Part shown: positions 1 through 24,679 of the stretch, one piece after another
Layout: each line of letters begins with the position of its first letter
Position numbering within the stretch: position 1 is the first letter of the stretch
NCBI GenBank assembly: GCA_004431415.1
Contig: QPMI01000490.1
Location: 1-64,000, forward strand
Direction: 5' to 3'
Length of the DNA stretch: 64,000 nucleotides
Source: Cyanophora paradoxa CCMP329
Taxonomy: Eukaryota; Plantae; Glaucophyta
Made by a program: the position numbers and the translations under genes
The notes under the pieces: model-generated
What the model was told of the DNA's origin: nothing
What the model saw: only the letters and a program-made list of their open reading frames with translations
Database searches by the model: none

Positions 1-444
1 TACGCGTTGAATTCCGACAATACAGTGAACTTACTGATTGCCTGATGCGACGGGGGGCTGTCCTGCGATAGCCGAGGGAACCTGCTCTCGCCCGTCCGCA
101 TCCCTGCGATCATCGAGGACCTTGTCGGCACCATCCGCGGCATGTCCACTGTCACGAATAAAAATTAGACACAGCGCAAGGACCGTACACACCACTGGCG
201 TTGAAAGTTTCAAAACCCACCTGGCCGCCGGAACCGGATTTCCAGAAGCTTCGGGCTTCTCAGTGACATCAATCGCTGTCTCCTCCGCCTCGGCTTCCGG
301 CTGCAGTCCCTTCGCTGGATTACCACTCCCTTTTGCCTTTGCAGGTGGAGCTGTCGCCGACGCTTTCTTAGGCGTCTTCACACTGGCCTCCTCAGGATTA
401 TCACCTTGCGCGGCAGGGGCCGTGGTCTTGGGTTGACGGGCCAT
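1..444 (-). CDS. 5' part of an unknown gene (MARQPKTTAPAAQG...), probable paralog of the gene at 13983; runs off the window start
   Basis: ATG at 444 (minus) opens an Ala/Pro/Lys-rich N-terminus like MARQSKAAAA at 13983. Both ATGs have a similar upstream motif (aaagtttgaaatt vs aaatttgaaatt). Confidence 0.5.
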
Positions 445-1794: not shown

Positions 1795-2860
1795 ATCCTC
1801 CGCCGTCCCGGTCCCGCCGCGAAGGCTCGCGAGTAGGTCGCCTGCGCTCACCTAGTCGCGCAGGCGCGCGTTGAAGGGCGGGAGGCGTGCACGAAGTGAG
1901 AAATGGGCGCCGATGTGTCCGACGCCCCCGCCGCAAGGCGCTGCGAGTCGAGCTCCCTGCATCCGCGCTATCGCGCGGGCGCGCGTCGAAGGGCGGGGAG
2001 TGCGCACGACGCGAGAGATGAGCCGCCGCTGCGCCCCGCTGCCCCGCCGCGAAGGCGCAGCGATTCGGGGCGCCTGCGCTCGGCTTCTCGCGCGGGGCGT
2101 GTGGGGAAGGGCGGTGAAGCGCGCACCAGGCATAGATGGGCCGCCGCTGCGTCCCGGCCGCCCCGGCCCTGCGCGAATGCTCCGCGAGTCGGGTCGCCGT
2201 GCTCACCTCTTCGCGCGGGGCGCGACGCGGAAGCGGGGATGCGCGCACCAAGCGAGAGATGAACCGCCGCTGCGCCCCGGCCGCCGTCGCCGCGCGGCGC
2301 GCCGCGAGAGGTCCTCCCTGCGCCCGCCCCGTCGCGCGAAGCGCGGCGCCGAAGTGCGGGAGGCCGCACCAAGCGAGAGATGGGCCGCCGCTGAGCCCGC
2401 GAGTCGGGTCGCCTACGCTCGCTTGTCGCGCGGGGCACGGCGGGAAGGCGGGAGGCGCGCACCAAGCTATAGATGGCGCCGCTGCTACCCGGCCGCCCCC
2501 ACGCGAAGGTGCCGCAAGTCGAGCTACCTTCGCCGCCCGTTGCGCGGGCGCGGCGAGGAAGGGCGGGAGGCCCGCACCAAGCGAGACATGTGCCGCCGTG
2601 CAAACCGGCCGCGCCGCCCTGCCGCAAAGCGCCGCGAATCGGGTCGCTCCGTTCACCTAGCTCGTCGCGCGGGAGCGGCGCTGAAGGGCGGGAGGCGCGC
2701 ACCAAGCGAGAGATGGGCCGCCGCGGCCTGCGGTTCCGGACACCCCCGCCGCGCGGGCGTCGCGAGTCGAGATCCTGCCCCGCCCCGTCGCGCGGGCGCG
2801 GTGGCGACGGGTGTGGAGGCGCGCACCAAGCGAGAGATGAGCCAAGGCTGCGCCCGGGTG
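1795..2860. repeat. GC-rich degenerate tandem array, about 9 units of about 95-125 bp
   Basis: Core gcgcaccaagcgagagatg(g/a)gccgccgctg recurs near 1888, 2001, 2120, 2242, 2364, 2457, 2572, 2697 and 2821. Confidence 0.9.
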
Positions 2861-2920
2861 GCTTACTATATTCTAGTCCATGTCCTAGCTAAAGATCTTC
2901 GCATCGCGGACTGAAAGCAA
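2847..2920 (+). repeat. Dispersed direct repeat, copy 1 (copy 2 at 12981-13055)
   Basis: 36-bp identical core ggcttactatattctagtccatgtcctagctaaaga at 2860-2895 and 12995-13030; flanks also similar (cggactgaaagcaa). Confidence 0.9.
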
Positions 2921-2932
2921 GATGTCGAATAA

Positions 2933-2972
2933 GACTCACTCCCAGGATTCGAACCTGGTCTAAGCGATGTGA
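2933..2972 (-). other. tRNA-like 3' half (T-arm/B-box fragment), not a complete tRNA
   Basis: Minus strand reads CCAGG-TTCGAAT-CCTGG (perfect 5-bp T-stem with canonical T-loop), then GAGTGAG. No matching 5' acceptor strand or D-arm found. Confidence 0.45.
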
Positions 2973-2995
2973 GCAGCCGTCCGGGACGGCTGGTC
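2971..2995 (+). repeat. 25-bp palindromic motif, left copy of an inverted pair
   Basis: gagcagccgtccgggacggctggtc. The reverse complement of 21111-21135 is gagcagccgtccaggacggctggtc (24/25 identical). Confidence 0.85.
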
Positions 2996-4894
2996 TAGAT
3001 CTACGGGTACCGAATAGCAAAGCTTCAGCCCGACCCTTCAACTAATAGCCAAGCTTCAGCCCTTTTTTGGAGCTTCGAATAGTGAGGAGCGGCTGGTCAC
3101 TTCCCCTTATCGAGCGCGCCATCCCGATGTCCACGAAGATGAATATCTGGCTTTGCGCAGGTGAGTCGCACGTGTGCACTGCGTGACTCAAATGTGCAAG
3201 CAAAGCCAGAACTTCGGAACTTGTACTAATATGCGTCCTCTACGCGCAGCGGCAGGCTAACGCGCTTGCACACTGGAACGCAGAGAAGAAGAACGAGGTT
3301 GAAGCGTTCCGACTCGCAGCTCAAGAGGTGCGCCTTATGCCGCGCAGTGCGAGGAGGGCCGCCGCTGCGCCGCGTAATTTGAGGCGTGGTTCGTAGATAG
3401 GCAGCGTCGTCGATCATCACCCACCGGCTGCAATGTGGAAGACACAGAACGCCGCCGGGGAAGCAAAAGACGCAGGGAGGAGGATCTTCTCTGGGCAAGC
3501 GGCGCCGCGACCGCAGCGACAAGCGGGACATCTACAGCGCCCGTGGCCCGCCCAAGCGTGGCCATTGCGAGTAGTAGCGTAGCTGCTAGCGGCCGAACGC
3601 ACATGTGCTCGGCTGCAGAAGTCACAACGGTCGGTGGGCATGCACACCTTCAACCACCCCACATCGTAAAAACGACGATTCGCCAGCGGCGGTCAAGCCC
3701 ACCGACTCGATGCTCGTGCCTCAGCTCGCCCGCGCATCTGCATCGCCTGCGGCGAGGAGAGCACCAGAACACAAGAGCCCTGCTCGCGCCATCGAGAACG
3801 GCTTCGTGGTAAGAACCTCAAGTGATTACAATATATAGCTACACTATGAATCTGACACGTGGGCACAGGGGCATGTACTTGTCTGTATGATGGAAGGAGG
3901 AGAGCTTGGCGCGAAAATTCAGGAGCGCGCAAGGAGGTCATCGATGCGATCGACATCTTCTTTCGCGGGACTCAGCGGGTATTGCAGTGCAACTTGCTCA
4001 AGAGCTACGACTCGTGAGAGCCAGAATCGATAGATTCCCTGAAGAACATATATCTTCGTCAGAGCAAGCGACCGATTCACTACGTACCAGGATGACCCAG
4101 CCGCTGGAATTGAACGTGTGTACTCCTGCATTTATGTTTTCGTCCAGCACGCGTTGCGGTTGGGTGGCTGACTCAAGACACAGGAAGGGAACAGTGGCAC
4201 CACTGAAGACGGACTACGTCGGTCATTGCGCATGCCGTATGCAATGCAATCAGAGACGCGAAGTCAAACGTGGAGCGCGAACTGGGCTGGTTGCAATCGG
4301 TCTCAAGGTCGATCGGAAGCTGGAGGGTCTTGCTTTCTACCTGGCGGATGAAGTTGTCACCCTGCGCAAACTTGCAGGGCAAGCAGGGGCGCCAGAGCAA
4401 TCTGGTAATCTGCATCCCGCGCCAATAGAGCTGTCGCCTACTCAGCCCTCCGGCTTCAGCTACTACGGCACAGAATCTTCGCACCCTCCCTCAGAACCAC
4501 AGGATCGCGGACCACCCGTGACCAACGTATTCTTATCGAACTCTCTCCTTTTCGCCGTTCTGCCGATCTCATCGTCAACCATTTCGCCTGCGGCAGCTCG
4601 CCGTCCACCACCTTACACTCCTCCTATGTGTACGTTTTCCGTGCACTCATAGTTCTTTCATTTAAAGTTACTAATCTCGTTCGTACAGAGCACGGGATTC
4701 GGTGGTGGTTGTCCATGTCCAATATCACACCATACTCTCAAGCTAGCCCCTCCAAATACACAATAGGCGGCTGCTTACGATTACGATGAATAAACTATAC
4801 GTAGACTTGGGTTTTCCGAGCTATATACGCAGGCTATCGTTGTGGTACGAAGGTACCAGTGTTGCCTACAGTACTGTGCACAAACAATCAGGAG

Positions 4895-5052
4895 GGCATT
4901 GGAAATCTCTTTTGTGCGAAGCGGCAGACCGTAGTGTGCACGATGCCGGATAGCGAAGAACGTGGTGAGGTCCCGGCGGAGTCTATCGTACCAGGTAAAC
5001 TCTGCCGCATGTGTGACCGGCAGCAGCGTACACATGCACGTTCGTAAATTTG
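4895..5052 (-). pseudogene. Inverted, frameshifted paralog fragment of the ORF at 10303-10623
   Basis: Reverse complement aligns with about 10309-10465 (aacgtgcatgtgtacgctgctgccgg...gagattt). Peptides: WYDRLRRDLTTFFAIR vs WYERLRRDLIKFFAMR. Confidence 0.7.
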
Positions 5053-5093
5053 TACGAAAGGTGAACTGAGTCGATTGTCATTGGATCACGTCT

Positions 5094-7407
5094 GTGCACG
5101 TGCTGCGTTTCAATGAACATCGTATGCGCTGGTCCTTTCTACGTTTGCTTGCTCCTTTCTCTTATGTTCGGGGGTACCCTGTATCGATTTGCTTTGGTGA
5201 TATCGGCTCTTTGGATCCGCTTCCCGCGCTGCTGGTGTTCATCATCTACGCAAAGCGTGCGTATGCAACCCGCCTACTGCCTGGGTTATGCTGCGCGGGT
5301 GCTGGCACACCTTTTAGCTGGGCTCTCGTCGACGTCGGAGCGGGCTTGCATCTCTCACACTTCTTACGCAGCTCATTCTGACGGCAGGTATTAGAGGCAA
5401 GACAGTACGGACTGCCTGTACGACCTTCTGGCGTCAGTCCCGAAGCCACGTCATCCGGCTCGTTCTGTCTTGCAATGAACATCACGCGTATGACACGTAA
5501 GTTTCTCCTTCGTGGTATTTCCGACGTTACGGGTTTGAAACCAGATCTCTGTCGTAGGTTCACGAATGCAGGATCTGTGCAGCGGGTAAAATTTTCTTTT
5601 GACGTTGGTATTATTGCCGCGTCATTGCAAAAGGACAGGTGTTCGAGAACCCTGGGATTTTCATTATTATCGCATCTTTCATATGTGACAACCAGTACCG
5701 TGCTGTCGTCTGTGTGCTTGGTGGCGTCTGTCAGAGTTGGAGACGTATAGTACGTGTGGTTGCCGTGATTGATGCGGTACTGATGGCCCTCGAGCTCATT
5801 TCTCTTGTCCTTCAGGCACGCAATTTCAAACCAGTGTCAGCTGTTTTTTCGTGCAGGATGAAAGTGGACTTGTGCGCAGACCCATCGGTCAAGTTAATAT
5901 AAGCGTGAATTCAATTGCGGAGGTGCGTTGTATTTCGCTAATGAGATCGCCCATGATCACCTCGGTAGCTAATGACATGATTCAGGCCGTTCGTATGCTA
6001 ATATCGCATCCTAAGAAGTGTCTTCTCGAACATGTGCGTTTTCAGGGTTACGACGCTATGTAACATATACCTCACGTCCTTCGATGGCTCCTAGGTTTTG
6101 ACAACAGTTACGAGGGTGGTGTTTATTACTTCACGTACAGAAGAAATATTCGTAGAACTCCCTCGTCTCGTGACTCATATTGGGTGTGCGGATATGCTAG
6201 TTGTCGAACTGTGCATATTTCGTGCACGTCCGTCACCGAATACGCTTTTTTGGTTTGTTAATTCAATTTCGGCTGTTGTGTTTCTATCTCATTTTTAATT
6301 ATCAAATGAACAGGCAAGTCGCAGGAAATGGAAATCGTACTGAAAGAATTTACGCGGAACTTACTACACGCCATGGACACTGTGCCAGCACATGTAATTC
6401 CAGCTGGATTCGGTGTCTCAGTCACGACATTATCGTCTCTGCGCACAGGCCCAACCGTTCCATCATCTACCAAAACATATATTGCTCATGCGCCACTTTT
6501 GGGGGGCTATCCGTCTGCTGCAATTTCCCATGTACGCGTCTTTTCTAAAGTCGTGAATGCTTTAATTAATAGAGCGTCCGTTGATATATTAAGCGCAGTT
6601 GGAGATTTGTTTGGATCCCAGAGAATCAGATCTGTTGATACTACACTCCGTCCTGGAACGACGGGAGAAGCCATTGAGTCTGGCAGGATAGCATTGCAGT
6701 CGCAGCATTCGATATCTTCTGCAAGAGCACTCCGTCGCCATGAATCACTTGTCAGTGAAACATGGAGGCTCTCGGCTTTCATTTCACCTATATCGCATCG
6801 ACTCAAGATATTCGGATTTTATATACGTATTAATGAGGACTGCCCATTGCAGTGCTGTGTGGATCCGATTGTCGATCCATTTCAACAGAGTATACCGCCG
6901 CTCGAAGTGTGCAAGATATTGACACCGGATCCTCGCACTGGGCCGTTACTCTGGGTATATTTGCAAGAACTTGCAATGTGCTCATTTTTCTTGTATATAT
7001 GTTTGGGTGATTTTACGTTATTCTGTCCTTAGGCAAAGGGGATGGCGGAGTTCCGGGAATTCCGATATGCCTTTCGTTTGCTGGAATTGATTCTGGCGGA
7101 GATTTCTAAACCGTTCCTTCTGTCATTTGAAGGGTGCGTGTTACGGTAGGGACTGTGAACTGGTTTTTCATTTTTCGTTTTCATCTGAATTGTCCTTGCT
7201 TTGTACAGATTAAATTTGTCGCATGTGGCGGGTCTTTTATTCGAGACAAGGATTGTGACATTACTGGAACGTAACCCACCCCGTCATCTCATTCTTCGTG
7301 ATTGTTATAAATGGCCAACGATGCGAGGAACGGCATTATCGATAGTTTTAGTTTCCCAGTTATTCGGACTGGGTGCCAGATTACATACGAATCATAATAT
7401 TGAGTGA
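5094..7407 (+). CDS. Probable multi-exon gene of unknown function (boundaries approximate, possibly degenerate)
   Basis: Chain of plus-strand ORFs, including the 234-aa ORF 6328-7032, separated by GT..AG intron-like segments (e.g. gtaagt at about 5497 to gtcgtag at about 5557). No domain recognised. Confidence 0.35.
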
Positions 7408-9147
7408 ATGTTTGTCTGGTCAAGTACATATGCATGCATATAGAATCCTAAGCACTACTAGCCCAGTGTTCCACTGCCCCCATCGACCCGCTGCCCCTCT
7501 GCACCCCTTCACCCCGGCCCGAGTATCCCGTCGCCCACCAGTGCCCGCCTCTTCTGGTCTCTAGCGCCCCGCTTCCTACGCCCCTATCGTCCACCCGCGC
7601 CGCCCTCTAGCACCCCGGCCCGTCACCCCTCTGCCGTCTCGCTTCCATCGGAGAGGACCAGCGGGAGACAAACCGCCTAGACTCAGTGTTCCGCCGCCCC
7701 CAGCAACCTTCTGCCCCCCCTCAGTACACCGTCTTCCCCATCGACATGACCCCACTCTGACCCTACTCAGCATCCCGTCTCACACCAGCGACCTGCTGTC
7801 CCCACCGCCCCGTCCCCGCCGCCCTTTAGCGCAAACCCTCTGTTTCTCACTTGCCCCCCCCCCCCCTCCTCCCCCCCCTCCCCCCCGCACCTCTCCGCCT
7901 CTCTAAACATCTGCAGTCGATGATTGCATTTGTAAATGCCTACTTTTGCTTCGGGAATACCTGGATTGCAGACTCAAGGTGTTTAATGCTAGTTCTTAAA
8001 AAGCTGCTTGAACACCAAGCGTGTACCGAGCTCTTTCTCATGTCAGGACACCTACTTCCGGTTGCTTCGTCGACATCTCATCAATGGCCTCTGATAAAAT
8101 TACCATTTCGATCGACACCTTCTGAAGTCTCATCAGGACGCCGGACAGCTTAGCAGAATCATCGTCCGACAGTGGCAAAATTGGGAACGTTGGCCTTGTC
8201 AGAACTGCAAGCAATACGGCCGTGTGAACCAGACGTACGCTAGCAGCAATATTAATGCCGATGTGCACGAGATGCACTGCGTACTTACTTGAATCGTCGC
8301 TTGCGCTGTCGCTGTCAGTGCCCTGCATATCGACATCCGACCCTGTTCGTGCCACCTTTCAGTACACAGCGCGTTCGTTAGCAACCGATCGTACGTTCGG
8401 AATGCCAGATATGCACCTGTTGCATTCTGCCATTTCTCTGCCCAGTGGCACGACGGGCAATCGCTATAGTCATCACCCCGGACACTCTGCGCGATCCCCA
8501 TGCGCGTATGAGTCGGTAGACCGGTCCAACCTCGTGAAAACATGCTCGCGTACTTCCCGACCAGCGTCTGATTGCGAATCGCCTGACGCTTCTGCAAAGT
8601 GAAGTGCATATGCAATGCGTTAGCCTGCTGCGGACTCTGCACGTCTACAGCGAGCGCTGGTCTGAATGCGTCACCTCGCCCATGTTCGATAGGTGCTATC
8701 CGGCTTCGCTCTCCATTAACGTGCAAACGGTAACCTTCCCGACGCGAGCATCTACCCCTGTGCTGTCGCTCCGTCAGCGTCACTTCGATAATAGCTGTCA
8801 TCAGTCTCTCTCCGTACATCCTGTTCCTAGGCGGCCATGTACGACTTGTACGATATCACAGGCGCGATCGATCATCCCCGGCGCAAGCTAGCATCATACC
8901 TCGCTGCGCGCTTTAATCTGAGTGCCTTATACAAGCCCACCGCCACCGATCTATGTATCGCGCCACCGAGGTTCGCACACACGCATGTTCTATCCTTTGT
9001 TTGCGCATCCGATCCGGTAAACACATGTTACTATAGCTACTCTCATGCGTGCTCCTACTCCCAGTTTTTACAGAGCGGTGATATGCTCGGAAGAGCCATT
9101 GACAATGGCTGCCGCGACCATGGGATCATCGACCAGGATTGCCTGTG

Positions 9148-10130
9148 ATGGACGGCTTTTATGCACATCCTGCGGCTTTTGGGGAGCGTCTCCGCGACCA
9201 CGCCTTAATTTCGTACCTTCCTCCTGACATACCAAGCTGCGTGTTCATATCAGGTCCGTCATTCGCCATCGTTCCATACCTATGCATACAAACATACGCA
9301 TCCTCTCTATGCGCACAGGTGGCCTCCCTTCAAAGCCCTCACGTGCCCGCCGATTGCCTACCGAATGGCATTGTACGCATGCATGCGAGAAAGCATGAGC
9401 GCGAACCGTTTGTCCTGAGAGTAGCTTGCAGGAACGATATCGACATCTACGTAAAAGCCTCAACCGTGGCAGAATTCACTCGCGTCGTCAACGCCTTCTA
9501 TCAAGCTGCGGCGCGCGCATCCGCAGAACGAGTCGCGCCTTACCTACCAAAGAATAAAACCGTGGATGTCTTCTGCGCACCTTTTGCCTACGGCATCCAG
9601 ATCATGGCCCCAGGTGTCCTACCTCTGCAGGTGCCTGCTACATGCAGAATATTTCGAACGGTATCATTTCGATTTTCAAATTCTGTTCCTCAGATCAGTG
9701 TCATGGGTTCGAATACTATTGAGCGTATAGTATCATCGTACGACCTCCCTGCATGTGCAATCTACGTGCCAGGAGACGACCTTAGCCACCCGGTCGCAAC
9801 GTTTGCAGCGTGTATGACCCTCATCACGCACACAATTCCATCAACGTGGACTACCTGGGCCTTTTTCACCCCTTCTACTACGTTGAAAATGGCCACGTGT
9901 TAACCACGCATCATCCATACCACTGCGTGCCCCGGATTTTGAAATACGTGCAAGACACCGGAGCTGGAGTACGTACTCTCTCGCATTCAATCCATACTAC
10001 TGCTGGCCTCCGCGATCGTGTTCGTGGGTCATCGCTTTCTGGCATCGAAGACGTTAACCCGCGATCAAGATCCGAACTCGAGTGCATAATGCATCCTGCC
10101 TCCGCAGCTGGCGTCCTGCAACTACTATGA
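9148..10130 (+). CDS. Putative nucleotidyltransferase (Pol-beta superfamily, class II CCA/poly(A)-polymerase-like, virus-type); 3 introns and about 2 apparent frameshifts; true start may be upstream
   Basis: Removing introns 9254-9318, 9373-9431 and 9631-9693 and restoring one base in a C run near 9326 gives CVFISGG...NDIDIYV...PLQISV...IVSSYDLPACAIY. After a frameshift near 9835 it continues to PRILKYVQDTG. Confidence 0.6.
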
Positions 10131-10302
10131 CACTCAAATGTTGTGCGCAGGAATCTGAGGGCGCGTCACCTGGATTGGATTGGTTGCGAAGGGGACACCG
10201 GTCTGCTTCCCTCAGGAGTACACCCTGTGCGTTTCTATTTTATACGATCATCGTGGCCGGTATCGAGTTCACCCGCAAAGTTAATGTGTTTGCGGCCAGT
10301 TC

Positions 10303-10623
10303 ATGAAGAAATTTGCGAACGTGCATGTGTACGCTGCTGCCGGTTACACATGCGGAAGAGTTTACGCCTGGTACGAGAGACTCCGACGTGACCTCATCAA
10401 GTTCTTCGCTATGCGGCAGCTCACACACAACGGTCTGCCGCTTCTCACACAAGAGATTTACGATGCCTTCAACGCTGCATTCGACGCCTCGGTGGCAGCA
10501 AGGGAATCGGACCCCGACAGAGTACGTCGCTACGTATACTATTCCTTCGAATTCCTGCGACCCCTGCTACTACAGTTCTTTCACTCCCCCCAACCCCAAG
10601 TAACTACAGCATGTGATCTCTAA
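10303..10623 (+). CDS. Small unknown ORF (106 aa) with duplicated fragments elsewhere in the region
   Basis: Intact ATG-to-stop ORF. Inverted paralog at about 4895-5052; about 50 bp of it (10475-10523) is repeated at about 10695-10743. Confidence 0.4.
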   Translation: MKKFANVHVYAAAGYTCGRVYAWYERLRRDLIKFFAMRQLTHNGLPLLTQEIYDAFNAAFDASVAARESDPDRVRRYVYYSFEFLRPLLLQFFHSPQPQVTTACDL

Positions 10624-11023
10624 ACCCTCCTTGCGGTGGTGATCGTACCCGTATTCTTCATGTGCACATCTTCACGGGTGCAGTGTGGTGAACTCTGCAT
10701 TCGACGCATCTGTTGCAGCAAGGGGATCGGACCCCGGCATAGTTAAGCTTACTATACTGTAGTCCAGGCCTAGTCAGCTAGCATAGTACGGAGCATGTGA
10801 GGAGGGATCGAGGCAGTGTGAGTGGATGATATTGGAATGGAAGTCAAGTGCAGCAAGCTGAGGGTAGCCAGTGCCAATGTGCGCATTCAATAAAGGCAGG
10901 CAAAACTAAGTAGTCGAGCGCAAGATAGAAGGTGTCAGAGATAGGAAACAGAAATCGATGCGAAACGAACCCCGACAACTGACTGCCATACAACGTATAT
11001 GGAGTACGGCGCGCGTCCTTGCC

Positions 11024-11730
11024 CTAATTCTGACCGACATCGTCGTACATTCCGTGGTACATATCATCATGCAGCGGCCATCCATCTGGGTCCACATCGG
11101 GTCGATGTACGACGTGCTTGGCGACCGTCCCATTCCTCTTCATATAGATTTCGGCCCACCGGCGATCGGGGTCCCAACTGCCAGCACAATCGAAGGCATT
11201 TACTATCAAGTCGTACTCTGCGGTGGGGATGGGTTTAATAGTTGATCATCATCCAAGATTACATGTGTACAGGCACCTCCATTACAGTCCGTAAGCTGAA
11301 CGGACGCAATCACATCGTACGCAGAAGTAAACTCGTTGTTACTCACGCGCACCGCTGCAGGCCCAGGTGGTACTGCTATGATGGCGCCTGTGCCGGGATT
11401 CTTGATTATAAAAACGTCGGGGTCATTTGGCTCATGGCCTCCAGTACGATGATGGAACCGGGGCCGCTGACTCGCACTGATTGAGATATATCGCGGTAAG
11501 AAGCTAAATCGAGATTCGGTCTCGCGTAAGAAGCAGCTAGCACTATATCGGATGTGGGCGACGTATCTGCGATGGCGCAAATCGCAGCATGCACTTGCGT
11601 CAGCAGCGAACGGAGCAAGCGCACGGAGAACATACCTCTCGATCGCTTCTTGGAACCGGAATCGAGGATGGGACGCAAAGTATTCGTCAACGACATGTCT
11701 AGCCGTCTCTGCAAGAATCAAGTCCGGCAA
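11024..11730 (-). CDS. Unknown ORF(s), probably one frameshifted coding region
   Basis: 174-aa ORF 11206-11730 abuts 61-aa ORF 11024-11209. Normal-complexity protein-like sequence, no domain recognised. Confidence 0.3.
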
Positions 11731-12980
11731 TTAGGGGTACAGCCTGCATTCCCGGCGCCGTGAACGACAGCCCGTGCGCTACACGCGCAACTCGTCGCAT
11801 CGTTCTTAGCGCGCTCATTCGCCTGCGCAATCTCCAGCTAGGCCAACCCACCGCTAAGCGCGAAGCAACGCGGCGCGCTCCTTCGCCAACGCCAGCGCCA
11901 TCAAGGCGAACACAAGCGCTAGAAGCGCCGCTCGTCGTACCTTCGAAGCGCGCTCAGTCGCAGGGTGGCTGATACCCCGGCTCGAAGTAAGCATGCTCAG
12001 ACCCGATCCGCGCCTGCCGTCTAAACACAGACGACTTTTAACTTATATGTTTCAACAGGTTCCGATTACTTGATCATGGCGAAAACAAAAGCGTGCCATG
12101 GGATCTCACCTGGGATGTTCAGAGGAACGATGCAGAGGATCGAGCAGCCACATGATTATAGAGGACCGATCCGTGACTATAGTCACTTCTCCGACGTCAC
12201 TACTCTTATGAGAAACACACCGCATGTTGATCGCATCCAAATCGTTGAAGATGGAACGGTTCTGCAACGATTTCTGCAGATCGAGCCTATCCACATCTTC
12301 AGGCCATGGCAAGCCGGGCGTGACTTCGGTATTACCCTTACGTAAACCTCTACTTCTTCACGTCTCACCACCAGACGCCTGCCAGCTATCTCTCGGGCAC
12401 TCGATACGAAACTCCGCCTGCATCTGTCCTGTCCCTACACATCAGAACGTATCAGAGTGCCAGTTCAGTCAGTGTACTGCGTTCACCCGCACGTACGTGG
12501 TCGCATTCCCTTCATAAATTCCACATTATTCTTATCCCTGCGCAGTGTTTCGATTTCAACGAGCACTTGATATTCTCCCTTCATAATGAAGATTGGTCAG
12601 CTATTCGTCCTGCACTCATGGTCATGATCAAAGTTAAATCCTTTCCATAGGGAATGCCCATTCCAATTCTGCCAAAGACAAGCAGGTCTCCACAATCTCA
12701 TCATTGACGAGTTCTTCAAGTCCATCCTTGACGGGGTCTGTGCCCGATTTACCTTTACATCTCATAATTACTGATACCCTCATTCCAGACAACGCCTGCA
12801 GATCTCGCTGTCGAAATAGACAACACAGGAAGATGGCTGCCATGCGCTTCCGACAATATACCCGACTAGATCAAAATCTCCAAGCAAGGCTAGGCCGCGC
12901 ACCCCCATCAGTGCATCACCCCGCCCCGCCCTTCTCTGCCACATCCAACCCCGCCCCCGCCAGGGCGTCGCGAGTCGACC

Positions 12981-13055
12981 GCTGCGCCCCGGGCGGCTTA
13001 CTATATTCTAGTCCATGTCCTAGCTAAAGAGCATCGTACCACGGACTGAAAGCAA
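12981..13055 (+). repeat. Dispersed direct repeat, copy 2 (see 2847-2920)
   Basis: 36-bp identical core; preceded by gggcgtcgcgagtcga, which also occurs in the last array unit (about 2755-2770). Confidence 0.9.
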
Positions 13056-13982
13056 CGTGGCCCCCTAATCGATAGACCTATAGCTAGTAGTCTTCAGTCG
13101 AATCATAGCCACAAACATGGTCATCGTAGCAGTCTGTTTCGGTGCAGCATAGACGATTGCAGATTTCGCCGCGGGCCTTGCCGTATGCAAGGTGCTCTCC
13201 TGGCGCTGCTGGTGGTGCATGTCTCTCATTCTTGGCGCGAGGATCGCCGTATTGACGATCAAGAGGGTTTCGCTTCAGAATCCGCCGACAGCGTATAACT
13301 GTGTGATTGGGGCAGAGGGTTGTGACATAGAAGTAATCAAGCGCGCCCATGCGGACATGAGCCCATGTGCGATCGGTACAGACATCGCATTTTATCATCT
13401 CGCTGCTATGTTCCTCACAGTAGATGCTGCATAACAAGGGCGTTGGCTCCAGTCAGATATGTTGGTTTTGTGCGTAGGGTTGACCACTTAAACATCATAT
13501 ATATCCCTCGCGAACCTGCTACAGTTATCCGATGAGCACCGGTATACCGTATGCTGACGACCGCCAGTACTGGCCATGGAGGGAGCGTGAAAGTCGTCAT
13601 TGCAGAAAAGAACAGGACAGCCAGTGACGGATGAACACCGAGCAAGCCGGCACGTTCGTGCTGGTTCGAGCGGGCATGGGCCGTGCATACCGTCGATGGC
13701 AGGGCACGCGTACGGTCCGTGCGCACGCGCGTCGGCAATCTCATCCCCGGAACACGCTGCAGTCGAAGTAGGAGGTGGATCGGCTTCAGCTGCCGGCGCC
13801 ATTACGCTGTCTGGGCCCAGGCCTCAGTCTGACGTAGAGTCTCTGGCATCAAACCCGAACGGCGGCTTTTTTCCCAATATGCGTACGCGAACTCGGAGAG
13901 TTAGTCGACGATCGAGAACTAAAGTTAGTCCCAAATTTGAAATTTTGCGTTGAGTACGTACTCTAAACCATACCGAAGTGCA

Positions 13983-16417
13983 ATGGCACGTCAATCAAAG
14001 GCAGCTGCTGCTGCAGCCACGGCTGAGAAGAAGGACAACGTGCTCGAGCCGAAGAAGGCTGACGTGGCCGCGTCACTGGCGAAATCTGATGCCACTGCTG
14101 CTGCCGGGAAGGACCCGCTCCCTGTCGCCGTTGACGAGGCTTCGCCGGTGATCCCTACGCCGGTGGATGCGACGTGGACGACGCGGCACGCGCTGCCTGG
14201 GTGCGCTTGGAGTTAATCAATGTTCGGTCCGGCATGGTGCGGATTTAAGCTGACGATCGGCGCGATAGCAGGCTGAACGACGGCATGCCACGGGAAGGGG
14301 CAGCTGCAACTATCACGGCGGCAGTGGCATCGTCTCGCCCGTTGCCTGGCGCGTCCGGATCCATTTGCAATGCTGGGCAAGTGTACGTATTCTACGATCG
14401 CGTAATATTGGCTGTGACTAATACGACGTTATTCGTCCCTGCGTAGATCGGCTGCCGTGCCGGTCGCCACTAATTCGGCAAGTGCCACGGCTAATGGGAT
14501 TGTGATGCTATCGTACGTGCTTTTATAATCAATAGCATTTGTGCACGACGAGCGTCACAACCCTAATATATTTCCAGGCCCGCAAAGAAGGTTACTGTGG
14601 CGCGCACGTTCATGGATTTGAAGGATGGGAGGGATTTTAACGGTGTCGTGCGGATTGCGAACATGCACACCATAAGTGGAAGGAACGGAGGTGACACCAT
14701 CCGCGGTACTCTGGAGGATGAGGTGCGCAACCCCGTTGTAGCTGGGTAACATCATGTGTAATGTCAATGTGGCGATTTTATATAAGCTTTCTGCTCATCG
14801 ACGTACGCAATGCAGGTCGGCGATAAGGTGCCGCTCCGTATCTTCACAGGGGCGATGCTAACAAGTGCGGGAAAAAATGCCATCAAGGGAGACATGCTAA
14901 TCGATCAAGTGAACAATATAACCGAACACTTGAACGCAAGCTGCAACTCAGAAAATATGGTATACTCTCCCATTTACGTATACTTCCATTATCCGTATCA
15001 GTATGCTGACATGGAATATATCGATCAGTACTTAATCATGAAATCATCAAACAAAGCACGCTACTTGGTGAAAGGGACTGCGACCGAGAAACTGGCTTGG
15101 CCATTGACGCGAGACCGCACACTGCTGAAGGAGATCCAGATTAATTCTGGTAATGTCGGTCTAATCAACTTCGAATCAGTGAATGAGGAGGTCTGTCACT
15201 CATGTTTTACCTACATTCATATCGCGCGTATTCATTACCTGCTCACTTTTGCTGCCGTACGTTAGGATCCTCGTCTCATCGAGCTTCCTCACAAACTCGC
15301 GAATATGGATCGCGCATCATTTGTCATGATGCGCTACGACATCGTTTCCGACTTCAGGGGAGCAGCAGTTGACTATATGAATGTCAACAAACTGTGCGAC
15401 TCGAACAGGTTCAGCGAATGTGCGTGCTACTATAGATAACTGGGATGATACCACGTTTTTCGTCGCGCTCGTACCGTGTTTTATCGCTTCATCAGATAAC
15501 ATTGGATGCATCATCAAGGAGGAAGAGGACGGATACGTGTGCATGGACAAGCTCGGGTGTAAGGTGCCAGCTCGGTTTGGACTTGGCGCAAAGTTCGAGT
15601 CCCTCGGGGAGCTGTTCGACACCTACAGCATCGACGGGGTCGCGGACATCGTCGTTTCATTCGCGGAGGTTCGGACGTCTATACTGTAGTTAAACATGGT
15701 AAACGAATGCAAGGCGTAATTCACACGCATTCAAACGTAGTTCAAATTCGAGCGACCATCAGGCACCCCGACGGAACTGTGGTTTGGCTTCTTTTCTGAA
15801 GTAATGGGACTTGCGGAATTCGAGGAGAAAAAGAAGACCCTGCCGGTAGGGTTCGTCTCGAAGGCAATTAAAATTCCGGATGCGAGTGCTCGCTTGCATG
15901 CATCTGTCCCGTTTGGTAATGGGTCGAACCGAGTTGGTGCGGAAGTTCAGCCTATCGGTTTTAACCTGTGTAACCCTTTCATGCAGCGCTCTTCGCCGGC
16001 GGTACCGGCCCGACAGGGAGCACCCCGAATTTGTCGGGTACGACCGGATCCCTGTCAAGGTTGGAAATGGTGGATCAGCGATCGCTCTGAATGGAATCTC
16101 AAGCTCGCCGATGGCAATGGCAGCAATGAACATGCCGATGCAGCTGCGCCTGAGCCTGAAGGACAATCCGTTCGCGGTGTCTCGCGATCGCACTGGAAGT
16201 GAGGCTTCTTTTCCTAATGGGCTCGTTGAGCGCGAGGTATATGACTTTCCGTACATTGCATATGCCACGTTCCAGCTAATCTCGTAGCAGGCAACTATCG
16301 CAAAGCGGAAGAAGGGAGGCAAGGACGAAGCCAAAACTTCAAAGAAACAGAAGAACGTGAGCGTGGAGTCGGAGTCAGATGCGGAGGTGGACGACGAGGA
16401 GGAGGAAGAAAATTGAA
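13983..16417 (+). CDS. Multi-exon gene for an unknown protein with an Ala/Lys-rich N-terminus, basic NLS-like patch and acidic C-terminal tail
   Basis: ATG 13983 (MARQSKAAAA); exon-like ORFs 14810-15190, 15381-15667 and 15880-16236 bounded by GT/AG; last exon ATIAKRKKGGKDEAKTSKKQKNVSVESESDAEVDDEEEEEN followed by TGA at 16415-16417. Confidence 0.6.
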
Positions 16418-16897
16418 CGGACCGACTCATGGCTCTGCATCTAATTCATAGATTCCATATATTCATTCATAGTTTGAACATTTGTCATGTATAGCACAAT
16501 GGCGGGAGGGTAGTAACCGGGTAGCATTATATATATATAGGTTTTCGTAGGTCATTTCGCTTCGCATACGAGATAAAGAGTGTAAATCAATTTCTTATAA
16601 AGTATCACGCAACGATGGCATACGAATCAACCGCACCGGGGCGCGGTTGGCTAGGTTGGGAAGCTGGGCGACCGCGGGCCGGGGCGCTGTAGCTCCGAGG
16701 GCGTGCTCCTGGTAGCGGACGCTAGATGGCAGGGCCAAAGCGCTGGAAGAGGGCCCGGAATGCGTCGGTAACATATTCTCACGTGCTGCATCCCTACGAA
16801 GCATGATGCACGCGACGTACACTGCGAGCACCCCTACGCTTGGTGCGCGCTTTCGATTGCGTACCCGGCCAGTCCGTGCATCTGATCCGCGTCAACT

Positions 16898-17457
16898 ATG
16901 GCGCGTGTGAAGGTGACGCCGAAGAAATCCGATCAACGGATGGCCTCCAAGGCCGCCACCGGGTCCCGCGGTCCGCGCAGGGCCAAGACGGGAACGAAGA
17001 GTGTCATTCCGGGAAGGAAACCTCACCGTTCTCGTCCAGGTGCGAATGCTATCGCCCCATATCGTACCTCGCGGTGCGTGGATGATTACCACGTCAGCCC
17101 GAACCCGCAGGCACCGTCGCGCTTCGTGAAATCCGCAAATACCAGAAGACGACAGATCTCCTCCTTCGCAAGCTGCCGTTCCAGCGGCTGGTGCGCGAGA
17201 TCGCACAGAACTACGGCATGCCGGACAAGCGCTTCCAATCCTCCAGCGTCCTTGCGCTACAGGAAGCCAGCGAGGCGTACCTTATCGGCCTTTTCCAGGA
17301 CGCAAATCTATGCGCTATCCACGCAAAGAGGTGCATTGCGACCTACTGATCATGAATACAACTACACTGCTTACATCTTACAGGCCCGACGCGCAGGGTG
17401 ACGCTCATGCCAAAGGATATGCAACTCGCCCGTCGCATCCGAGGCGAGCGCACATAA
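16898..17457 (+). CDS. H3: Divergent histone H3 variant, 140 aa, 3 exons (16898-17039, 17111-17330, 17397-17457)
   Basis: Spliced translation: [140 protein letters not shown]. Canonical GT-AG introns; AATAAA at 17586. Confidence 0.95.
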
Positions 17458-18079
17458 ATCGTACGATTTCCAGGACGTGAGGTGTGCTCCGACAACTCCG
17501 GTGTAATCCAATTCAGGATACAGTATGTTTAACGCTTCACGAGATTATGTTGCACGTACACTCAATGCAACGGATTGAAAACCGTAATAAAGCCCGTTGA
17601 GTAACGCGACGGACCAACCATCGGACGTGCACTAATTCAGCGGCACGTTATCGAATACAGATGCACATGCTACTTGCATACTGCAGTGACTCGCTCATGT
17701 TGCACAGTCTTCCACTACTCTGGGTAATGCCTGGAGACGGGGGCTGGTCCAGTTGGAAGCCAGCGCCGGGTTGCTTGCGGGGGGGCATGGCCGGGAGCGA
17801 CGGAGTACGGGGCACTACGGGGCGGCAAGGACGATGCGCTGCGGCGGGCCGGTGCATGGGGGCGGATCGCGCGGGGCGGAGGGCGATGGGCTGCCTCCAC
17901 ATCTCTCGGCTGACGTGCGCAAGATTGTGCTCACCCCGGTCGCCATCGCCCTTGCATGACCGACTCATCATATCGCTGACGGATGACGTTTGCCACGTTC
18001 TCGTCCGCGCTCCTGTAACGACATCGGAATCAAGATTTTATAGTATGGCGAAGTGTAGAGACGTGTTGACAAATTAAAG

Positions 18080-21034
18080 GGAGAGGGGGGCGACGGTACA
18101 TGAGGAGGGGGGGGGAGGGCGGTAGGGGGGGAGGGGGGTATGGAGCTTACCGCCGAATGGCCTCCTCCGCGAGTACGGCCACCTGCATTGCAAGAGTCAG
18201 CCGTCATACTGAAAACGTCATTATCGGTAGTCCTATGCTTCGGTATGATTGAGTGTAAAAATCGTGTGGACCCTACAGTCGATCAAGTACAGAATCAAAT
18301 CGAGCCGGCCGGGGACGCCGATGCCGGCGCCTTTGCAAATCTCCACCAGCCGACCCCGAAACATCTTCATTGGATACAGCAGCAGCTCCGGCCCTGTCAA
18401 TGGCAGCTCCTGCATGCACTGTAACCTGCTGCAGCGTTGGCTGAGAGTTCACGTAAGGGAAAATGGACGGACTCTGGAGATCCATCAGGGAGCGTGACAA
18501 ATTGGCGAATATACGCGAGGACGGTGGGAGGCGTCCAGGTCATCACCGTCGCGGAGTCCGGGCCCACGGTACCCGGAGGTTGGGCTCCCATGTTCCCCGT
18601 GTTATCGTCGTCAACGCTGTCGCTCGCGGCATGTACCGGTGCGTTGGCATCTGACGTTGGATTACTAGGTGGTCAGAGACGACGTTCCAATAGAATATAA
18701 CTTCGCTAGATCTAAAGTTGCTAGCTCAGGCACTGATAGCGCCTGCACGACCGCACGTCCGTAATAGCGCACCTGCCTCCGGTCGTACTCTCTCGGTTCT
18801 CGCCCCTGCTCTCCGAATTAATCGGGTAGCCCGAATATTTAAACTCGATAGGTAATAATTCGCACACCCTCTGATGAGACTTTAGCCTTCTTCGAATTCC
18901 GCGTGTTCGCACTTGGGCCCCCGTCCTTCTTTGCAGCAGAAGAGCTCTCCTCGATCACACTACCCGCCGATTCGTACGCCTCCTCGTCCTCGTACGCGTC
19001 CTCCCCATCCGTCTCGCCCTCTACTCAAGGCGCCATGCGTCAGCGATTACTCACATCGCATCGCTCGACATACCACTACTGGTTTCAGCGTTGTACTTGG
19101 GGCAGGTCTTCATGTGATTGGACAGGGTCTTCTTGCTGGCATACGTGCGATTGCAATTAGCAGCGGGGCAAGGGAGACGGTCGTCGTCGGCCTTCTTGCT
19201 CGTAGCTTCGGAAGCTGCTGGATAAATTCAATGAGTACCGTTCGCACACCAGCCGGCGCACATGAGAGGCATGTTTGGCACCTGACTTCCGTTTGCATGC
19301 ATCAATGTGCGTCCCCTTTCCTTTGAACGTTATGCCACAGTTATCACAAATAAACGGCGCCTGCTTCTTTCGCGCTTTCCCAGACGATCCTGCATCTCAG
19401 TCAGATCGGCTGCAGTTATGCATGATGTATGGGGAATGCAGTCAGCGATCGTGACCGTACCCCGTGACGCCTCGGTGCCCTTTCCTGCATCAGTCGACTC
19501 CGCCCCCTTCGAACCCTCGCGCTGGTTGCCTGCAATTGAGTCTAAGGGGTCGCTCCCTCGAGGGTGTTCGGGGACCTCTTAAATTCAACGCATCCTGCCG
19601 CTCACCAGGCCCTCCAGGTTGACTGTCTATACCTCGAGACTTGCCTGCGAGCATGTGAACTGTGACCATCTCGAGTGGATATTACGGTGCACCGGTTGCG
19701 TACCTTTCGATGTGGCGACGGGTGGTACGCCCGCCACCTCGCCTGCTTCCTTGCCCTTGCCAGTACCGCGCGATGACGCCATGCCTGCGGGCTCGAAGGA
19801 CAATTAACTGCCGTATCCTTGCGACAGACGCTGCTCCCTTCGTTCGTGCACCTGATGAACGAACCGTAGTCTGGGGGGGGCTTGATGCCCGCTCTTGTTT
19901 CACTTCGTCCGGGCGCCGCCACAGATTGGGCGGCGCAGGGACATTCGATCTCGTGGTTCTCGCCTGGGGGGGGCTTGATGCCCGTTCTTGTTTCACTTCG
20001 TCCGGGCGCCGCCGCATATTGGGCGGCGCAGGGACATTAGATCTTGTGGTTCGCATTGCATCGGCGGGCTCGACTTTCGGCTGTACAGCGCGACCATCTT
20101 TGTACGCATCAGAACTACATATATCGCGCCAATTTCAAAGTTCCAATGACCGCACCTGTGCTGTGACGCCGCGGGCTCTTCTCTGATAGGCGCATCCCAT
20201 CTGCGGCTCCAGCATTGCTGCCGCCTATTACGCCTGGCACCCGCCCGAGCCTGCCGCAGAGCCGAACCGAGGTTGTCAGTCGCATCGTTCTAGCGGGGCT
20301 GCGCGCATGCACCTGCTATGTCGCCTTGGTCGCTCGAACCTGGTCCTGGGCCAATCGTGACGTCACACCGCGAGCCATCGGAGGTCAGTTCCTTCACTCC
20401 GGCTGATCCACTATCGCTGCCGCCGGGTGTACATGCGCCCCCGTCCAAGCCTGCCGCCAACCCGAAGTTGTCAGTCGCTTCGTTCGAGAGGGGGTCCGGG
20501 CAGGCACCTGCGATGTCGCCTTCAGCCGGCGCGCTCGCAGTCTGACTGTCGCCTTCCGCGGGTTATTTGCCGTCGCCGCCGCGCGCGCCGTCCCGCCCGT
20601 GTCCTTTGCACCTTCTGCCGAGTCCAGATCGATCACTGCTCGATTACAGTCAGCGTCAGGGCGCGGCGCTCGCTTAGTCTACGGTATCACCTGGAGCTCC
20701 GTCGCCTTCGGCATCGCCTGAAAGCGCCGGCGCCTCGCTCGTCGTCTTTCTCGACTCCATTGTCTCGTCGGCCGAGTCCAGATCAATCACTGCTCCAGTC
20801 CGGTCAACGCCAGCACGCTGCGCTTCCGTGGCACTCTCACCTGATTGAGCCGCTAGCGCTCCTGCCGTACTGTTCCCTTCCATGTCCCTTTCGGCCGCGC
20901 CACCGCCCTCGTCGTCTTGTGCGAGCCTCTCGGTACGATCGTCGCCGGCGTGCGGCGAACCACACTCTCGCTCCATGTGCACCTAGTGCTGCGGCTGTCA
21001 GCTGGTTCCCTGTGGTGATGCTGTGCACGTGCAC
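18080..21034 (-). CDS. Multi-exon low-complexity protein with C-terminal SAM-like domain and two SIM-like motifs (boundaries approximate)
   Basis: Removing intron 18426-18472 gives VMTWTPPTVLAYIRQFVTLPDGSPELQCMQELPLTGPELLLYPMKMFRGRLVEICKGAGIGVPGRLDLILYLIDCR, matching the SAM pattern W-T-x-x-x-V...G-x-x-L-L...G-I-x-x-x-G-R. AVIDLDSA occurs twice (about 20617 and 20771). Acidic patch near 18990. Confidence 0.45.
19871..20052. repeat. Tandem duplication, 2 x 93 bp (31 codons)
   Basis: ctggggggggcttgatgcccg...acatt(c/a)gatct(c/t)gtggttc starts at 19871 and 19964. Frame-preserving in the minus ORF (RTTRSNVPAPPN..RRPDEVKQERASSPPQ twice). Confidence 0.9.
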
Positions 21035-21110
21035 CCGACGCTCTGGTCTTCAGCTTCCTTACCTGCTCGCACCTGGCGTCTTACGCGCTTATTCCAACGT
21101 GTACCCCTTC

Positions 21111-21135
21111 GACCAGCCGTCCTGGACGGCTGCTC
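21111..21135 (-). repeat. 25-bp palindromic motif, right copy of the inverted pair with 2971-2995
   Basis: gaccagccgtcctggacggctgctc. Confidence 0.85.
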
Positions 21136-21536
21136 CCTTAGCTTCATTATAAGCTCATACTCGGAAGCCCGACGTCGACGGGCGGCGGCTGGGCTCCTGG
21201 TGCGACACGGGGATTGATCAGGCGGCTGAGGTCCGGATCGCTGGGCGCAGTTACCGTAGTACGTATACGGGCGGAGACCCGCCAGACGCGTACGTATACG
21301 TACACCGGATCCTGAGTACTAGTGGATCGCCGCGCCGGCGCTGCGGCCGGCGCCGGGCCGCACCTCCGACCCGGGCCGGGCCGGCGGCGGGCCGCGCCCG
21401 GCCTGCGGCAATAAGCAAGGCATGAGGAGGACCTGCAAACCCTCCGAATTACCTGCAGCTGATCGATGTAACATAGCTAGCTACCAATATTAATAGTGCT
21501 CTAGATCTCGCCGGGCCTATAGCTAGGCATCCGGAT

Positions 21537-24160: not shown

Positions 24161-24679
24161 CAGTGATGGAATTAATAATAACCCCAAAAATGGGACTTTA
24201 TAAGAATGATTATTAATAGTTAATAATAAGTTATTAGTAGATTAATAATTACTTCCTCATAGAAGCGCGAAACCACGTTGAAGGAGCGTTGCCGCGCGGT
24301 TCTGGTGCTAAACACTCGTATATAAGCTGCCTGAGCATTGCGAGTGCCCTCTTTATCTGTTGGGGGTCGAATAAAAGGGTTAAAGTGCGACCAAGGGGGT
24401 ACTGGATGGTCTGGAGCTGCCGTCTGATCAGCTTATGAGCATCATATCAAGCTGCAGAAGTGCCCAGAAGGTCTCTAGACGTGTATAGAACTGCTTTGTA
24501 TCGCTCTAGCATGCACAGACTCGTCATAGAGTGCAAGAAATGGTGTGTCTACGGGTACCCCCCCAAACTAATAAACGTTATTAATAAGAATGGCTGTTCC
24601 GGGACCTTACTAATAACGTATTATTAATACGTTATTAATAAAATATTATAAGTACTTATTAATAAAGTGCCCATCACTG
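24161..24679. mobile_element. Non-autonomous hAT-type element (MITE), 519 bp
   Basis: Terminal inverted repeats cagtgatgg / ccatcactg; exact 8-bp TSD gttatggc (24153-24160, 24680-24687); subterminal ttattaata repeats. Confidence 0.92.

Follow-up and report, generated by a model that had tools for sequence, protein, structure and literature searches.

An amplified gene block carrying a histone H3 variant in Cyanophora paradoxa, possibly part of a giant mobile element

The window analysed here, a 64-kb stretch of DNA, belongs to contig tig00020516 of Cyanophora paradoxa, a species for which a public assembly, methylome and RNA runs exist. Homologue searches show that its left part is dense in orphan genes. 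Several genes of this block are spliced in all three RNA runs (X15, X16 and X19), whose contigs contain GT..AG or CT..AC joints absent from DNA run X6; such contigs show splicing and carry no expression level. On the plus strand, RNA joints outline a spliced orphan gene with at least five introns (3110..5162), its frame broken by single-base assembly errors, which has no Pfam match above noise. It is followed by a second spliced orphan gene, covered by RNA contigs (5180..7407, plus strand), whose longest exon has a low GC3 of 0.41 and no homologue among longer proteins or viral contigs; near 5640-5750 it holds what we take to be an F-box-like motif, for which Pfam gave no F-box match. A probable polymerase-beta-type nucleotidyltransferase gene, seen in RNA contig pieces, lies at 8837..10623 on the plus strand, and an inverted fragment of its last exon occurs at 4892..5051 on the minus strand (87% over 162 nt to 10309-10470). 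The nucleotidyltransferase proposed in the initial annotation of this DNA thus holds as a motif-level match to a viral ORF but not as a profile match; no phage homologue was found, and the frame, with two in-frame introns left in, matched none of 1.84 billion representatives.

Further to the right, a putative orphan gene with exons read by eye (11024..11730, minus strand) has no match in Pfam, PHROGs or NCBIfam, nor its frame 11209-11730 any in viral contigs. An SP-RING (zf-MIZ)-like gene at 12076..12774 (plus strand), predicted to encode a SUMO E3 ligase, matches PF02891 in one exon (E 5.9e-5, below the curated cut-off), with the remaining cysteines in the following exons. A Cys-rich two-exon orphan gene (13084..13802, minus strand) is covered by RNA contigs 12995-13430 and 13516-13854. 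One or more spliced genes at 17600..20976, with minus-strand introns, encode C2H2-type zinc fingers (PF23101, E 2.8e-6), acidic patches and two SIM-like motifs (at 20790 and 20636); the latter bear out half of an earlier assignment as a SAM/SIM protein, whereas the SAM domain lacks Pfam support. Ten single-exon predictions have no counterpart in the protein collection.

Two paralogues of the region are 56% identical to each other. The orphan protein g9958 (P0001, 563 aa; 13983..16416, plus strand) has the basic NLS-like stretch and acidic tail initially described, and near-identical models of it exist elsewhere. The 5' part of g9955 (P0002, 580 aa) was placed by tblastn at 16..444 on the minus strand, where it runs off the left window end. 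We presume a likeness of g9958 to OB-fold/RPA proteins, for which searches of Pfam and PDB sequences gave no match. The AlphaFold models are of low confidence (pLDDT 27.1 and 45.5), and fold searches with them returned nothing at E <= 0.001 (Foldseek) or at Z >= 5 (wide search). No relatives of the g9958 family were found in viral contigs, metagenomes, plasmids or the PDB. The regions upstream of the two paralogues show no protein or DNA homology above shuffle level, and both contain the same 9-mer 46-47 nt before the start codon, presumably resembling a host cell-cycle promoter element.

Between g9958 and the zinc finger gene(s) lies the histone H3 variant that had been noted from the start (140 aa; 16898..17457, plus strand; exons 16898-17039, 17111-17330 and 17397-17457). 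It matches PF00125 with an E-value of 2.6e-27, and its second intron is spliced in all three RNA runs. Compared with plant H3, 80 of the 96 core residues are identical as against 13 of 39 in the tail, where K4, K9 and S10 are kept, R replaces K36, and the ARKS motif around K27, a region of ambiguous alignment, is absent. In centromeric H3 (CenH3/CENP-A), Q68 and F84 are lost, the core has low identity to H3, loop 1 is longer and the tail is divergent. The variant keeps Q68 and F84 along with its high core identity, and so departs from this pattern in the core; one extra loop 1 residue and the tail agree with it. Depth over the gene is 229.2, or 6.0 times the host level, and its copy number rests on depth because the protein search filled with fused H3 models, the Cyanophora protein not being among the matches listed.

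The block as a whole is multi-copy. Within the region, seven X6 contigs reach depths of 128.9-242.9, against 38.3 and 33.5 for the host-flank contigs, a ratio of 3.4-6.3, with the proviso that contig depth is not copy number. Run X1, from another study and another year, gives 384.3 against 70.4 and 69.9. A depth of about 200 was considered as the single-copy level and was ruled out by the host-gene baseline. Among gene models, the g9958 cluster has six members on four contigs (three besides this one) and the g9955 cluster three members on three named contigs plus a second accession with identical sequence; members align at 98-100% identity. That second accession, P014196, is numbered two away from tig00020781_g13700.t2, and this numbering suggests that the two paralogues lie side by side on another contig too. 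Long X6 contigs carry 0-1 substitutions relative to the window, which makes the copies young. We estimate about five near-identical copies of a stretch of some 21,000 bases, dispersed as judged from depth, gene-model clusters and alignment, the flanks covered being those of this copy. The initial annotation had made its case depend on these genes not being single-copy, and depth and clusters agree that they are multi-copy; together with the splicing and transcription of the genes, this upholds the idea of a large, amplified unit that contains chromatin-related genes.

A somewhat unlikely source of these copies is recent segmental duplication, perhaps subtelomeric or mediated by repeats, in which a fast-evolving but immobile gene cluster was copied and the palindromes described below are bits of small dispersed repeats. 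It would account for partial g9958 and g9955 models on other contigs (195, 242 and 131 aa), although these truncations may stem from assembly indel errors, for the uneven depth along the block and for the 9-mer shared by both paralogues, and it sits easily with the lack of a mobility gene in Pfam scans and of a target-site duplication (TSD). Multi-copy DNA is also common in this assembly, for which 34.7 Mb of duplicate features are reported (PMC6704402). However, the tested genes are orphans or have viral-contig matches only, rather than conserved host relatives, and the block contains direct repeats and an array module of higher copy number.

This module lies at the left. A tandem array of ~121-bp units (1800..2857, plus strand; 76% GC), with divergent copies and loose ends in read contigs, is repeated elsewhere in the genome. 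It leads into the first copy of a 75-bp direct repeat (2847..2920, plus strand), 90.7% identical to the second at 12981..13055 (plus strand), which has a degenerate array-like unit just before it; with flank, the pair scores 125 against a shuffle maximum of 39. The array and g9955 make up the related sequence already suspected left of 2971, and this repeat pair and the nucleotidyltransferase exon fragment confirm the internal duplications. A tRNA-like T-arm (B-box-like; 2935..2965, minus strand) is the sole B-box match in the window; ARAGORN found 0 genes there, and Rfam gave no match to tRNA or any other family of RNAs. Depths summed at positions 2902, 2925 and 2956 reach ~22, 52 and 29 times the host level.

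A 25-nt self-complementary motif (12-bp arms, 1-nt spacer) had been proposed to bound an 18-kb element. A pattern search allowing up to three mismatches finds it at just two sites in the window, 2971..2995 (plus strand) and 21111..21135 (minus strand), and in none of 100 shuffles. As also claimed, similarity spreads beyond 25 bp, to 34 nt at 88% identity (2962-2995 / 21111-21144) and, in gapped alignment, to ~49 columns (score 55 versus a shuffle maximum of 32). Being a palindrome, the motif can also be read in direct orientation, with two mismatches to the pattern, so that its inverted orientation hangs on two positions and weak flanks. Searches with the 19-nt core gave 0 matches among viral contigs and 49 among metagenome contigs. 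None of those 49 holds the 25-mer within two substitutions or matches window positions 1-22200 over more than 28 nt, and they were treated as chance matches.

That the element ends at these palindromes and faces, in head-to-head arrangement, a diverged sister element holding g9955 and the array, we consider unlikely. The motif does occur only twice, inverted, around the gene block, an X6 contig breaks at 2981, and host-level depth is regained by 22880 and 25137, with bins next to 21135 that allow a drop. Against this, the left palindrome sits inside the module of 22-52 times host depth and is elsewhere joined to the 2855 segment (joint 3033 -> 2855, depth 190) and therefore does not form a left end in every case, and multi-copy DNA persists to its left (bin 1600-2266 at 226.8). 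The bin 20834-21500 is likewise too deep for a clean drop at 21135, with 178 versus ~114 expected in X6 and 577 versus ~217 in X1. The right palindrome may sit close to a true end; the depth in the adjoining bins fits either case. In agreement with the initial annotation, no TSD above chance level was found at the proposed termini: the longest flanking direct repeat is 5 bp, in 2 of 1681 boundary pairs with ~1.6 expected by chance, a comparison of one copy in which TSDs of 2-3 bp are indistinguishable from chance. Among the read-contig matches listed, none shows an end, an empty site or a TSD for the larger unit. GC is 54.0% between the palindromes, lower, as had been thought, than in two host genes (57.2% and 62.8%) but not than in the right flank (53.0%, 21136-26290) or the LINE (52.8%), and it therefore gives no marker for the right limit. 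The observed/expected ratio of CpG, 1.13 inside, compares with 1.07-1.10 for host genes. Short inverted-repeat elements and a LINE are nested in the right flank.

Searches for hallmark genes bear on what kind of unit this may be. Pfam scans of 134 of the 176 frames of at least 65 aa, plus 95 shorter sense-strand frames, returned no transposase (including the DDE type of giant TIR elements such as Plavaka/EnSpm, KDZ and hAT), recombinase, RepHel, polymerase or capsid, and among 23 proteins compared with PHROGs and NCBIfam no mobility or virus hallmark was found, as the initial annotation had also reported for transposase, integrase and capsid. These searches cover the window, past which the unit runs, with short exons and frames broken by assembly errors. 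Polintons/Mavericks and polinton-like viruses are recognized by a double jelly-roll capsid, a packaging ATPase and a protein-primed polymerase or integrase, and Nucleocytoviricota by capsid, A32 ATPase, PolB and VLTF3. The former had no match in the general profiles of Pfam, PHROGs and NCBIfam, nor the latter in Pfam as far as the unit lies in the window. An HK97-fold capsid, a terminase and a portal would mark a mirusvirus integrant.

It is accordingly doubtful that the block stems, as a fragment amplified at a later time, from an endogenised large DNA virus (Nucleocytoviricota or mirusvirus-like). For such an origin speaks the nucleotidyltransferase frame, which matches an ORF of giant-virus contig L001 with a pairwise E of 3e-8 (score 79 versus a shuffle maximum of 48), a match that is partly by construction because L001 was picked with an 8-residue pattern from the query; four other scans of viral contigs gave no relative. 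H3-like proteins are encoded by 21 viral contigs, yet an H3 tree of 20 rows, which left out 7 of the 21 viral rows as fragments, near-duplicates or non-H3, has no well-supported branch, and the rows closest to the variant in path distance are cellular H3. Giant-virus insertions are reported in C. paradoxa (PMC12344493), and mirusviruses have histones, RING ligases and introns (PMC12768974). The reported insertions are, however, methylated and mostly silent, whereas block genes yield spliced contigs in all three RNA runs.

We consider it quite possible, if short of probable, that the block belongs to a giant DNA mobile element, recently amplified, with its left end beyond 2971 and its mobilizing enzyme encoded outside the window or supplied by another element. 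The higher-copy, end-like module, the dense orphan genes, the young copies, the splicing and the nested elements of the right flank point this way, and the red algal Plavaka elements discussed below offer a precedent. What survives of the large mobile or virus-like element with a chromatin toolkit first proposed is thus an amplified block of spliced, chromatin-related genes, and not its boundaries or a mobility or virus hallmark. The copies would then owe their number to movement directed by the element, not to passive duplication, with the palindrome, the 75-bp repeats and the array of 121-bp units as putative cis-acting binding or recombination sites in or near the ends; in some copies, recombination between the two 75-bp repeats could delete the intervening 10.1 kb. 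The cargo proteins, all of whose functions are predicted from sequence, may act on the element's own chromatin: the SP-RING ligase would combine with a SIM/zinc-finger partner into a SUMO module that, with the H3 variant, maintains expression of the copies against the host's silencing of repeats through CpG methylation. The variant keeps K9, a repressive-mark site, which argues against such a role. It is improbable, though conceivable, that we are dealing with an undescribed, recently active class of giant glaucophyte mobile element in which an own H3 variant and a SUMO ligase/reader pair make private, silencing-resistant chromatin, and which moves via palindromic sites and a not yet recognizable enzyme.

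Anti-silencing enzymes on transposons and histones in viruses are already known; if an element of a cellular genome, young and present in several copies, does carry an expressed H3 variant, this would be a different escape from host chromatin control. Even on the least exciting reading, several Cyanophora 'genes', the H3 variant among them, represent copies of a single amplified block, with consequences for glaucophyte histone-variant and gene-family counts. A literature search, with most subscription journals outside its scope, found no published description of the block.

Among known systems, giant endogenous viral elements of C. paradoxa (PMC12344493) and mirusvirus integrants (PMC12768974) share with it orphan gene clusters, a virus-like nucleotidyltransferase, a histone and introns, as far as the available texts describe them; unlike them, the block has no hallmark gene in the window, is transcribed rather than silent, and exists in several near-identical copies. 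None of six contig names occurs in the supplement text (19,200 characters) available for PMC12344493, nor is Cyanophora mentioned in the available main text of PMC10827195. Helitron-like HLE1/HLE2 elements have hairpins, no TSD, gene capture and sometimes an RPA gene, with termini of either 5' TC plus a 3' hairpin and CTRR, or short TIRs with a stem-loop and T/T insertion (PMC11417382), although whole-gene capture by Helitrons is described as exceptionally rare (PMC6431247). The hairpins, the missing TSD and a CTAG directly after the left palindrome recall these elements. Unlike them, the right palindrome lacks CTAG, the RPA likeness of g9958 is presumed, and no RepHel was found in the window, as could be the case for a non-autonomous element. 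In the red alga Bostrychia moritziana, 17-19 kb Plavaka elements (EnSpm/CACTA-related) are reported with chromatin accessory genes and tandem arrays (10.1101/2025.02.11.637652), and the size class, intact chromatin accessory genes, adjoining arrays and archaeplastid host all resemble the present case. Here, however, no DDE transposase was found, the cargo is an H3 variant, SP-RING and nucleotidyltransferase rather than methylase/SET and 2OG oxygenase, Plavaka end motifs as given in the available text of PMC12730594 are not at the palindromes, and the block is in about five copies and transcribed. VANDAL (MuDR) and TET/JBP-bearing fungal transposons differ in their known transposases and TSDs, and the available texts (10.1101/2025.02.11.637652, PMC12730594) make no mention of a histone gene as their cargo. 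By analogy with the logic proposed for them, the proteins encoded by the Cyanophora block may likewise change the epigenetic state of the element that encodes them.

The DNA lying roughly between two copies of a 25-bp palindrome (2971-2995 and 21111-21135), and continuing to the left of the first, is a real, young, expressed and multi-copy block that carries a histone H3 variant. Contigs from 5 of the 24 listed sequencing runs were compared with the window, and those over flanking host DNA served as the depth baseline. These host-flank contigs have depths of 38.3 and 33.5, with one further at 23.8, in the DNA run X6, and of 70.4, 69.9 and 82.7 in a second DNA run, X1. Among the matches listed, seven X6 contigs within 2981-20886 show depths of 128.9-242.9, each with 0-1 substitutions relative to the window, and an X1 contig ending at 20995 reaches 384.3. 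The block therefore exceeds the host flank by 3.4-6.3 times in X6 and 5.5 times in X1; contig depth does not equal copy number, and gene-model counts on other contigs concur with a multi-copy state. The lowest depth in the block, 3.4x, belongs to the contig at 7900-8820, where a further minus-strand gene is possible. In the bins covering 8937-13605, depth is higher still and substitutions are more numerous, which points to additional, more diverged copies of that part. One X6 contig (depth 159) joins 12957 and 17453 on opposite strands, setting sequence like the 3' end of the H3 gene beside the 12950 region, and suggests rearranged copies elsewhere.

A one-exon homologue search returned two EukProt proteins, namely the window's own tig00020516_g9958 (P0001; 13983-16416) and tig00020516_g9955 (P0002; starting at 444 on the minus strand and exiting the window). 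The two orphans are 56% identical to one another, and their likeness to RPA-type OB folds is our assumption, which neither sequence nor fold comparisons confirmed. A 9-mer that we take to resemble the cell-cycle promoter element CHR precedes both start codons by 46-47 nt, at 490 (minus strand) and 13936 (plus strand); another of its five occurrences in the 64 kb, at 20139 (minus strand), is upstream of part of a zinc-finger gene. Counting the cargo genes elsewhere, as the initial annotation had proposed, gave gene models on several contigs for both. The g9958 cluster has six members on four contigs at 98-100% identity; that of g9955 is represented on three named contigs and by a second accession, two numbers away from tig00020781_g13700.t2, and this numbering suggests that paralogues of the two types are neighbours on tig00020781 as well. 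Segmental duplication, an explanation that we consider rather unlikely, would also yield such copies; C. paradoxa is probably haploid according to PMC6704402, which reports 34.7 Mb of its assembly as duplicate features.

Intron joints at 3110-5162, 16898-17457 and 17600-20976 occur in RNA runs from three studies (X15, X16 and X19), and none of them occurs among the matches listed for DNA run X6. Other joints or contig pieces span 5258-6977, 9691-11217, 12995-13854 and 13913-16612. All four runs compared with the window here, X6, X15, X16 and X19, reveal many single-base deletions in it, and every run has many single-base insertions relative to it at 3088-3733, 9837 and 29322-33233. The broken look of several frames thus reflects assembly errors, and these frames are probably intact. 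A Pfam scan of 134 of the 176 frames of at least 65 aa, together with 95 shorter ones (36-64 aa) from the sense strand, matched a histone (E 2.6e-27), C2H2 fingers (E 2.8e-6) and, below the cut-off, zf-MIZ (E 5.9e-5), with nothing else beyond scattered weak matches; PHROGs and NCBIfam added no match for 23 proteins. No SAM domain was detected in these frames, which leaves the SAM part of the SAM/SIM protein in the initial annotation unsupported. The probable nucleotidyltransferase, whose family label we presume, has no match in 1.84 billion representatives. An ORF without annotation on a giant-virus contig (L001) can be aligned to it, scoring 79 where shuffles reached at most 48. The first shared motif was the very pattern by which that contig had been selected; the second, S[FY]DL..C, played no part in the selection.

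The H3 variant, also noted initially, is confirmed by the histone match and a spliced model of 140 aa. Relative to one plant H3, 80 of 96 core residues are identical and 13 of 39 in the tail. It keeps K4, K9, S10, K56, Q68, F84 and C110, has R at position 36, and its loop 1 is one residue longer and lacks K79; there is no ARKS motif around K27, whose mapping is ambiguous owing to a nearby lysine-serine pair. By criteria that we take to be standard, it is not a typical CenH3. H3-like proteins are encoded by 21 viral contigs, and the viral proteins from L002-L019 have variously altered tails (for instance L004 and L012). An H3 tree did not place the variant's origin, and viral H3 genes recently acquired from eukaryotes are known (10.1101/2021.11.30.470311). 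An endogenous virus as the explanation of the block appears improbable.

The palindrome itself is secure: its 25 nt have no third site in the 64 kb at up to three mismatches and no match in 100 shuffles, and the similarity of the pair extends to 34 nt at 88% identity or, with gaps, to about 49 aligned columns (score 55; shuffle maximum 32). Being self-palindromic, the motif fits a direct orientation as well as the inverted one first proposed. Duplications flanking the palindromes were sought, and none exceeded chance: five-base matches occurred in 2 of 1681 boundary pairs, with about 1.6 expected. As the limits of an element, the palindromes divide. To the left, depth stays high across 2971 (226.8 in X6 for bin 1600-2266, the depth comparison running rightwards from 1600) and g9955 is multi-copy; related sequence left of 2971, noted initially, is indeed there as this paralogue of g9958 and a repeated array. 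To the right, positions 22880 and 25137 have depths close to that of the host, and bin 20834-21500 stands at 178 in X6, where about 114 would be expected from a clean drop at 21144 and 200 from none; in X1 this bin reaches 577, a value raised by other repeats. The bins put the right end between about 21000 and 22800, and it may or may not coincide with the right palindrome. Depth and joint statements rest on the best matches listed, and junction reads could lie beyond them.

The left palindrome is flanked directly on its left by an array of ~121-bp units (1800-2857), a 75-bp segment (2847-2920; second copy at 12981-13055, same orientation, 90.7%) and a minus-strand tRNA-like T-arm at which no tRNA gene was called. 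Summed X6 depth among the matches listed is 855 at 2902, 2002 at 2925 and 1104 at 2956 (about 22, 52 and 29 times host level), and one listed X6 contig (depth 190) runs from 3033 back to 2855 with 31 letters of other sequence between. Because of this depth and this joint, the left palindrome is a member of a repeated module commoner than the genes, with at least one alternative arrangement. An element bounded exactly by the two palindromes, compatible with the right end and at odds with the left, is therefore doubtful. Its supposed lower GC holds against two host genes, which have 57.2% and 62.8% where the DNA between the palindromes has 54.0%, but not against the right flank, at 53.0%; CpG is not depleted between the palindromes.

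Further right, a MITE-like element with 35-nt inverted ends (21529-22046) has an empty form, 21528 joined to 22039, in both DNA runs. More short inverted-repeat elements lie at 22828-23384, skipped by one joint, and 24161-25209. An L1-like LINE (26294-34097) has endonuclease and reverse-transcriptase domains, a poly(A) tail and a 15-bp target-site duplication; its depth is ~17-20 times host in the middle and higher towards the 3' end. Fibronectin type III repeats occur in a very long gene on the minus strand (36500-54600), which also contains a 45-nt coding tandem repeat (44256-44944) and has single-copy depth at 36519-39499. An intron-rich plus-strand gene with cysteine-rich repeats (58200-64000) exits the window at its right end.

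Our preferred, though tentative, reading is that the block belongs to a young giant DNA element only partly visible in the window. Its multi-copy state, the near-identity of its copies, splicing, the H3 variant and the repeat modules are direct observations. Such an element would move as one unit, with the palindrome, the array and the 75-bp repeats as its putative cis sites, and the H3 variant, together with a predicted SUMO ligase/SIM pair, might shield it from host silencing. A copy lacking the 10.1 kb that separates the two 75-bp repeats is predicted on tig00020781. According to PMC12344493, CpG methylation marks repeats in C. paradoxa, and genes that are methylated are mostly silent. The retention of K9 in the variant and the lack of any detected mobility gene weigh against overconfidence in the giant-element reading. 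No description of this block turned up in the literature listings searched, and supplementary tables of methylated or viral C. paradoxa genes may list its genes. The block was compared with Helitrons (PMC11417382, PMC6431247) and with polinton-like viruses, giant-virus insertions and mirusviruses (PMC12768974), as these sources describe them, and is placed among none of them; a polinton-like virus has been noted in C. paradoxa (PMC12220804). While its membership is not established, the block is most alike in mode to the red-algal giant Plavaka elements or to VANDAL-type elements, as described in 10.1101/2025.02.11.637652 and PMC12730594.
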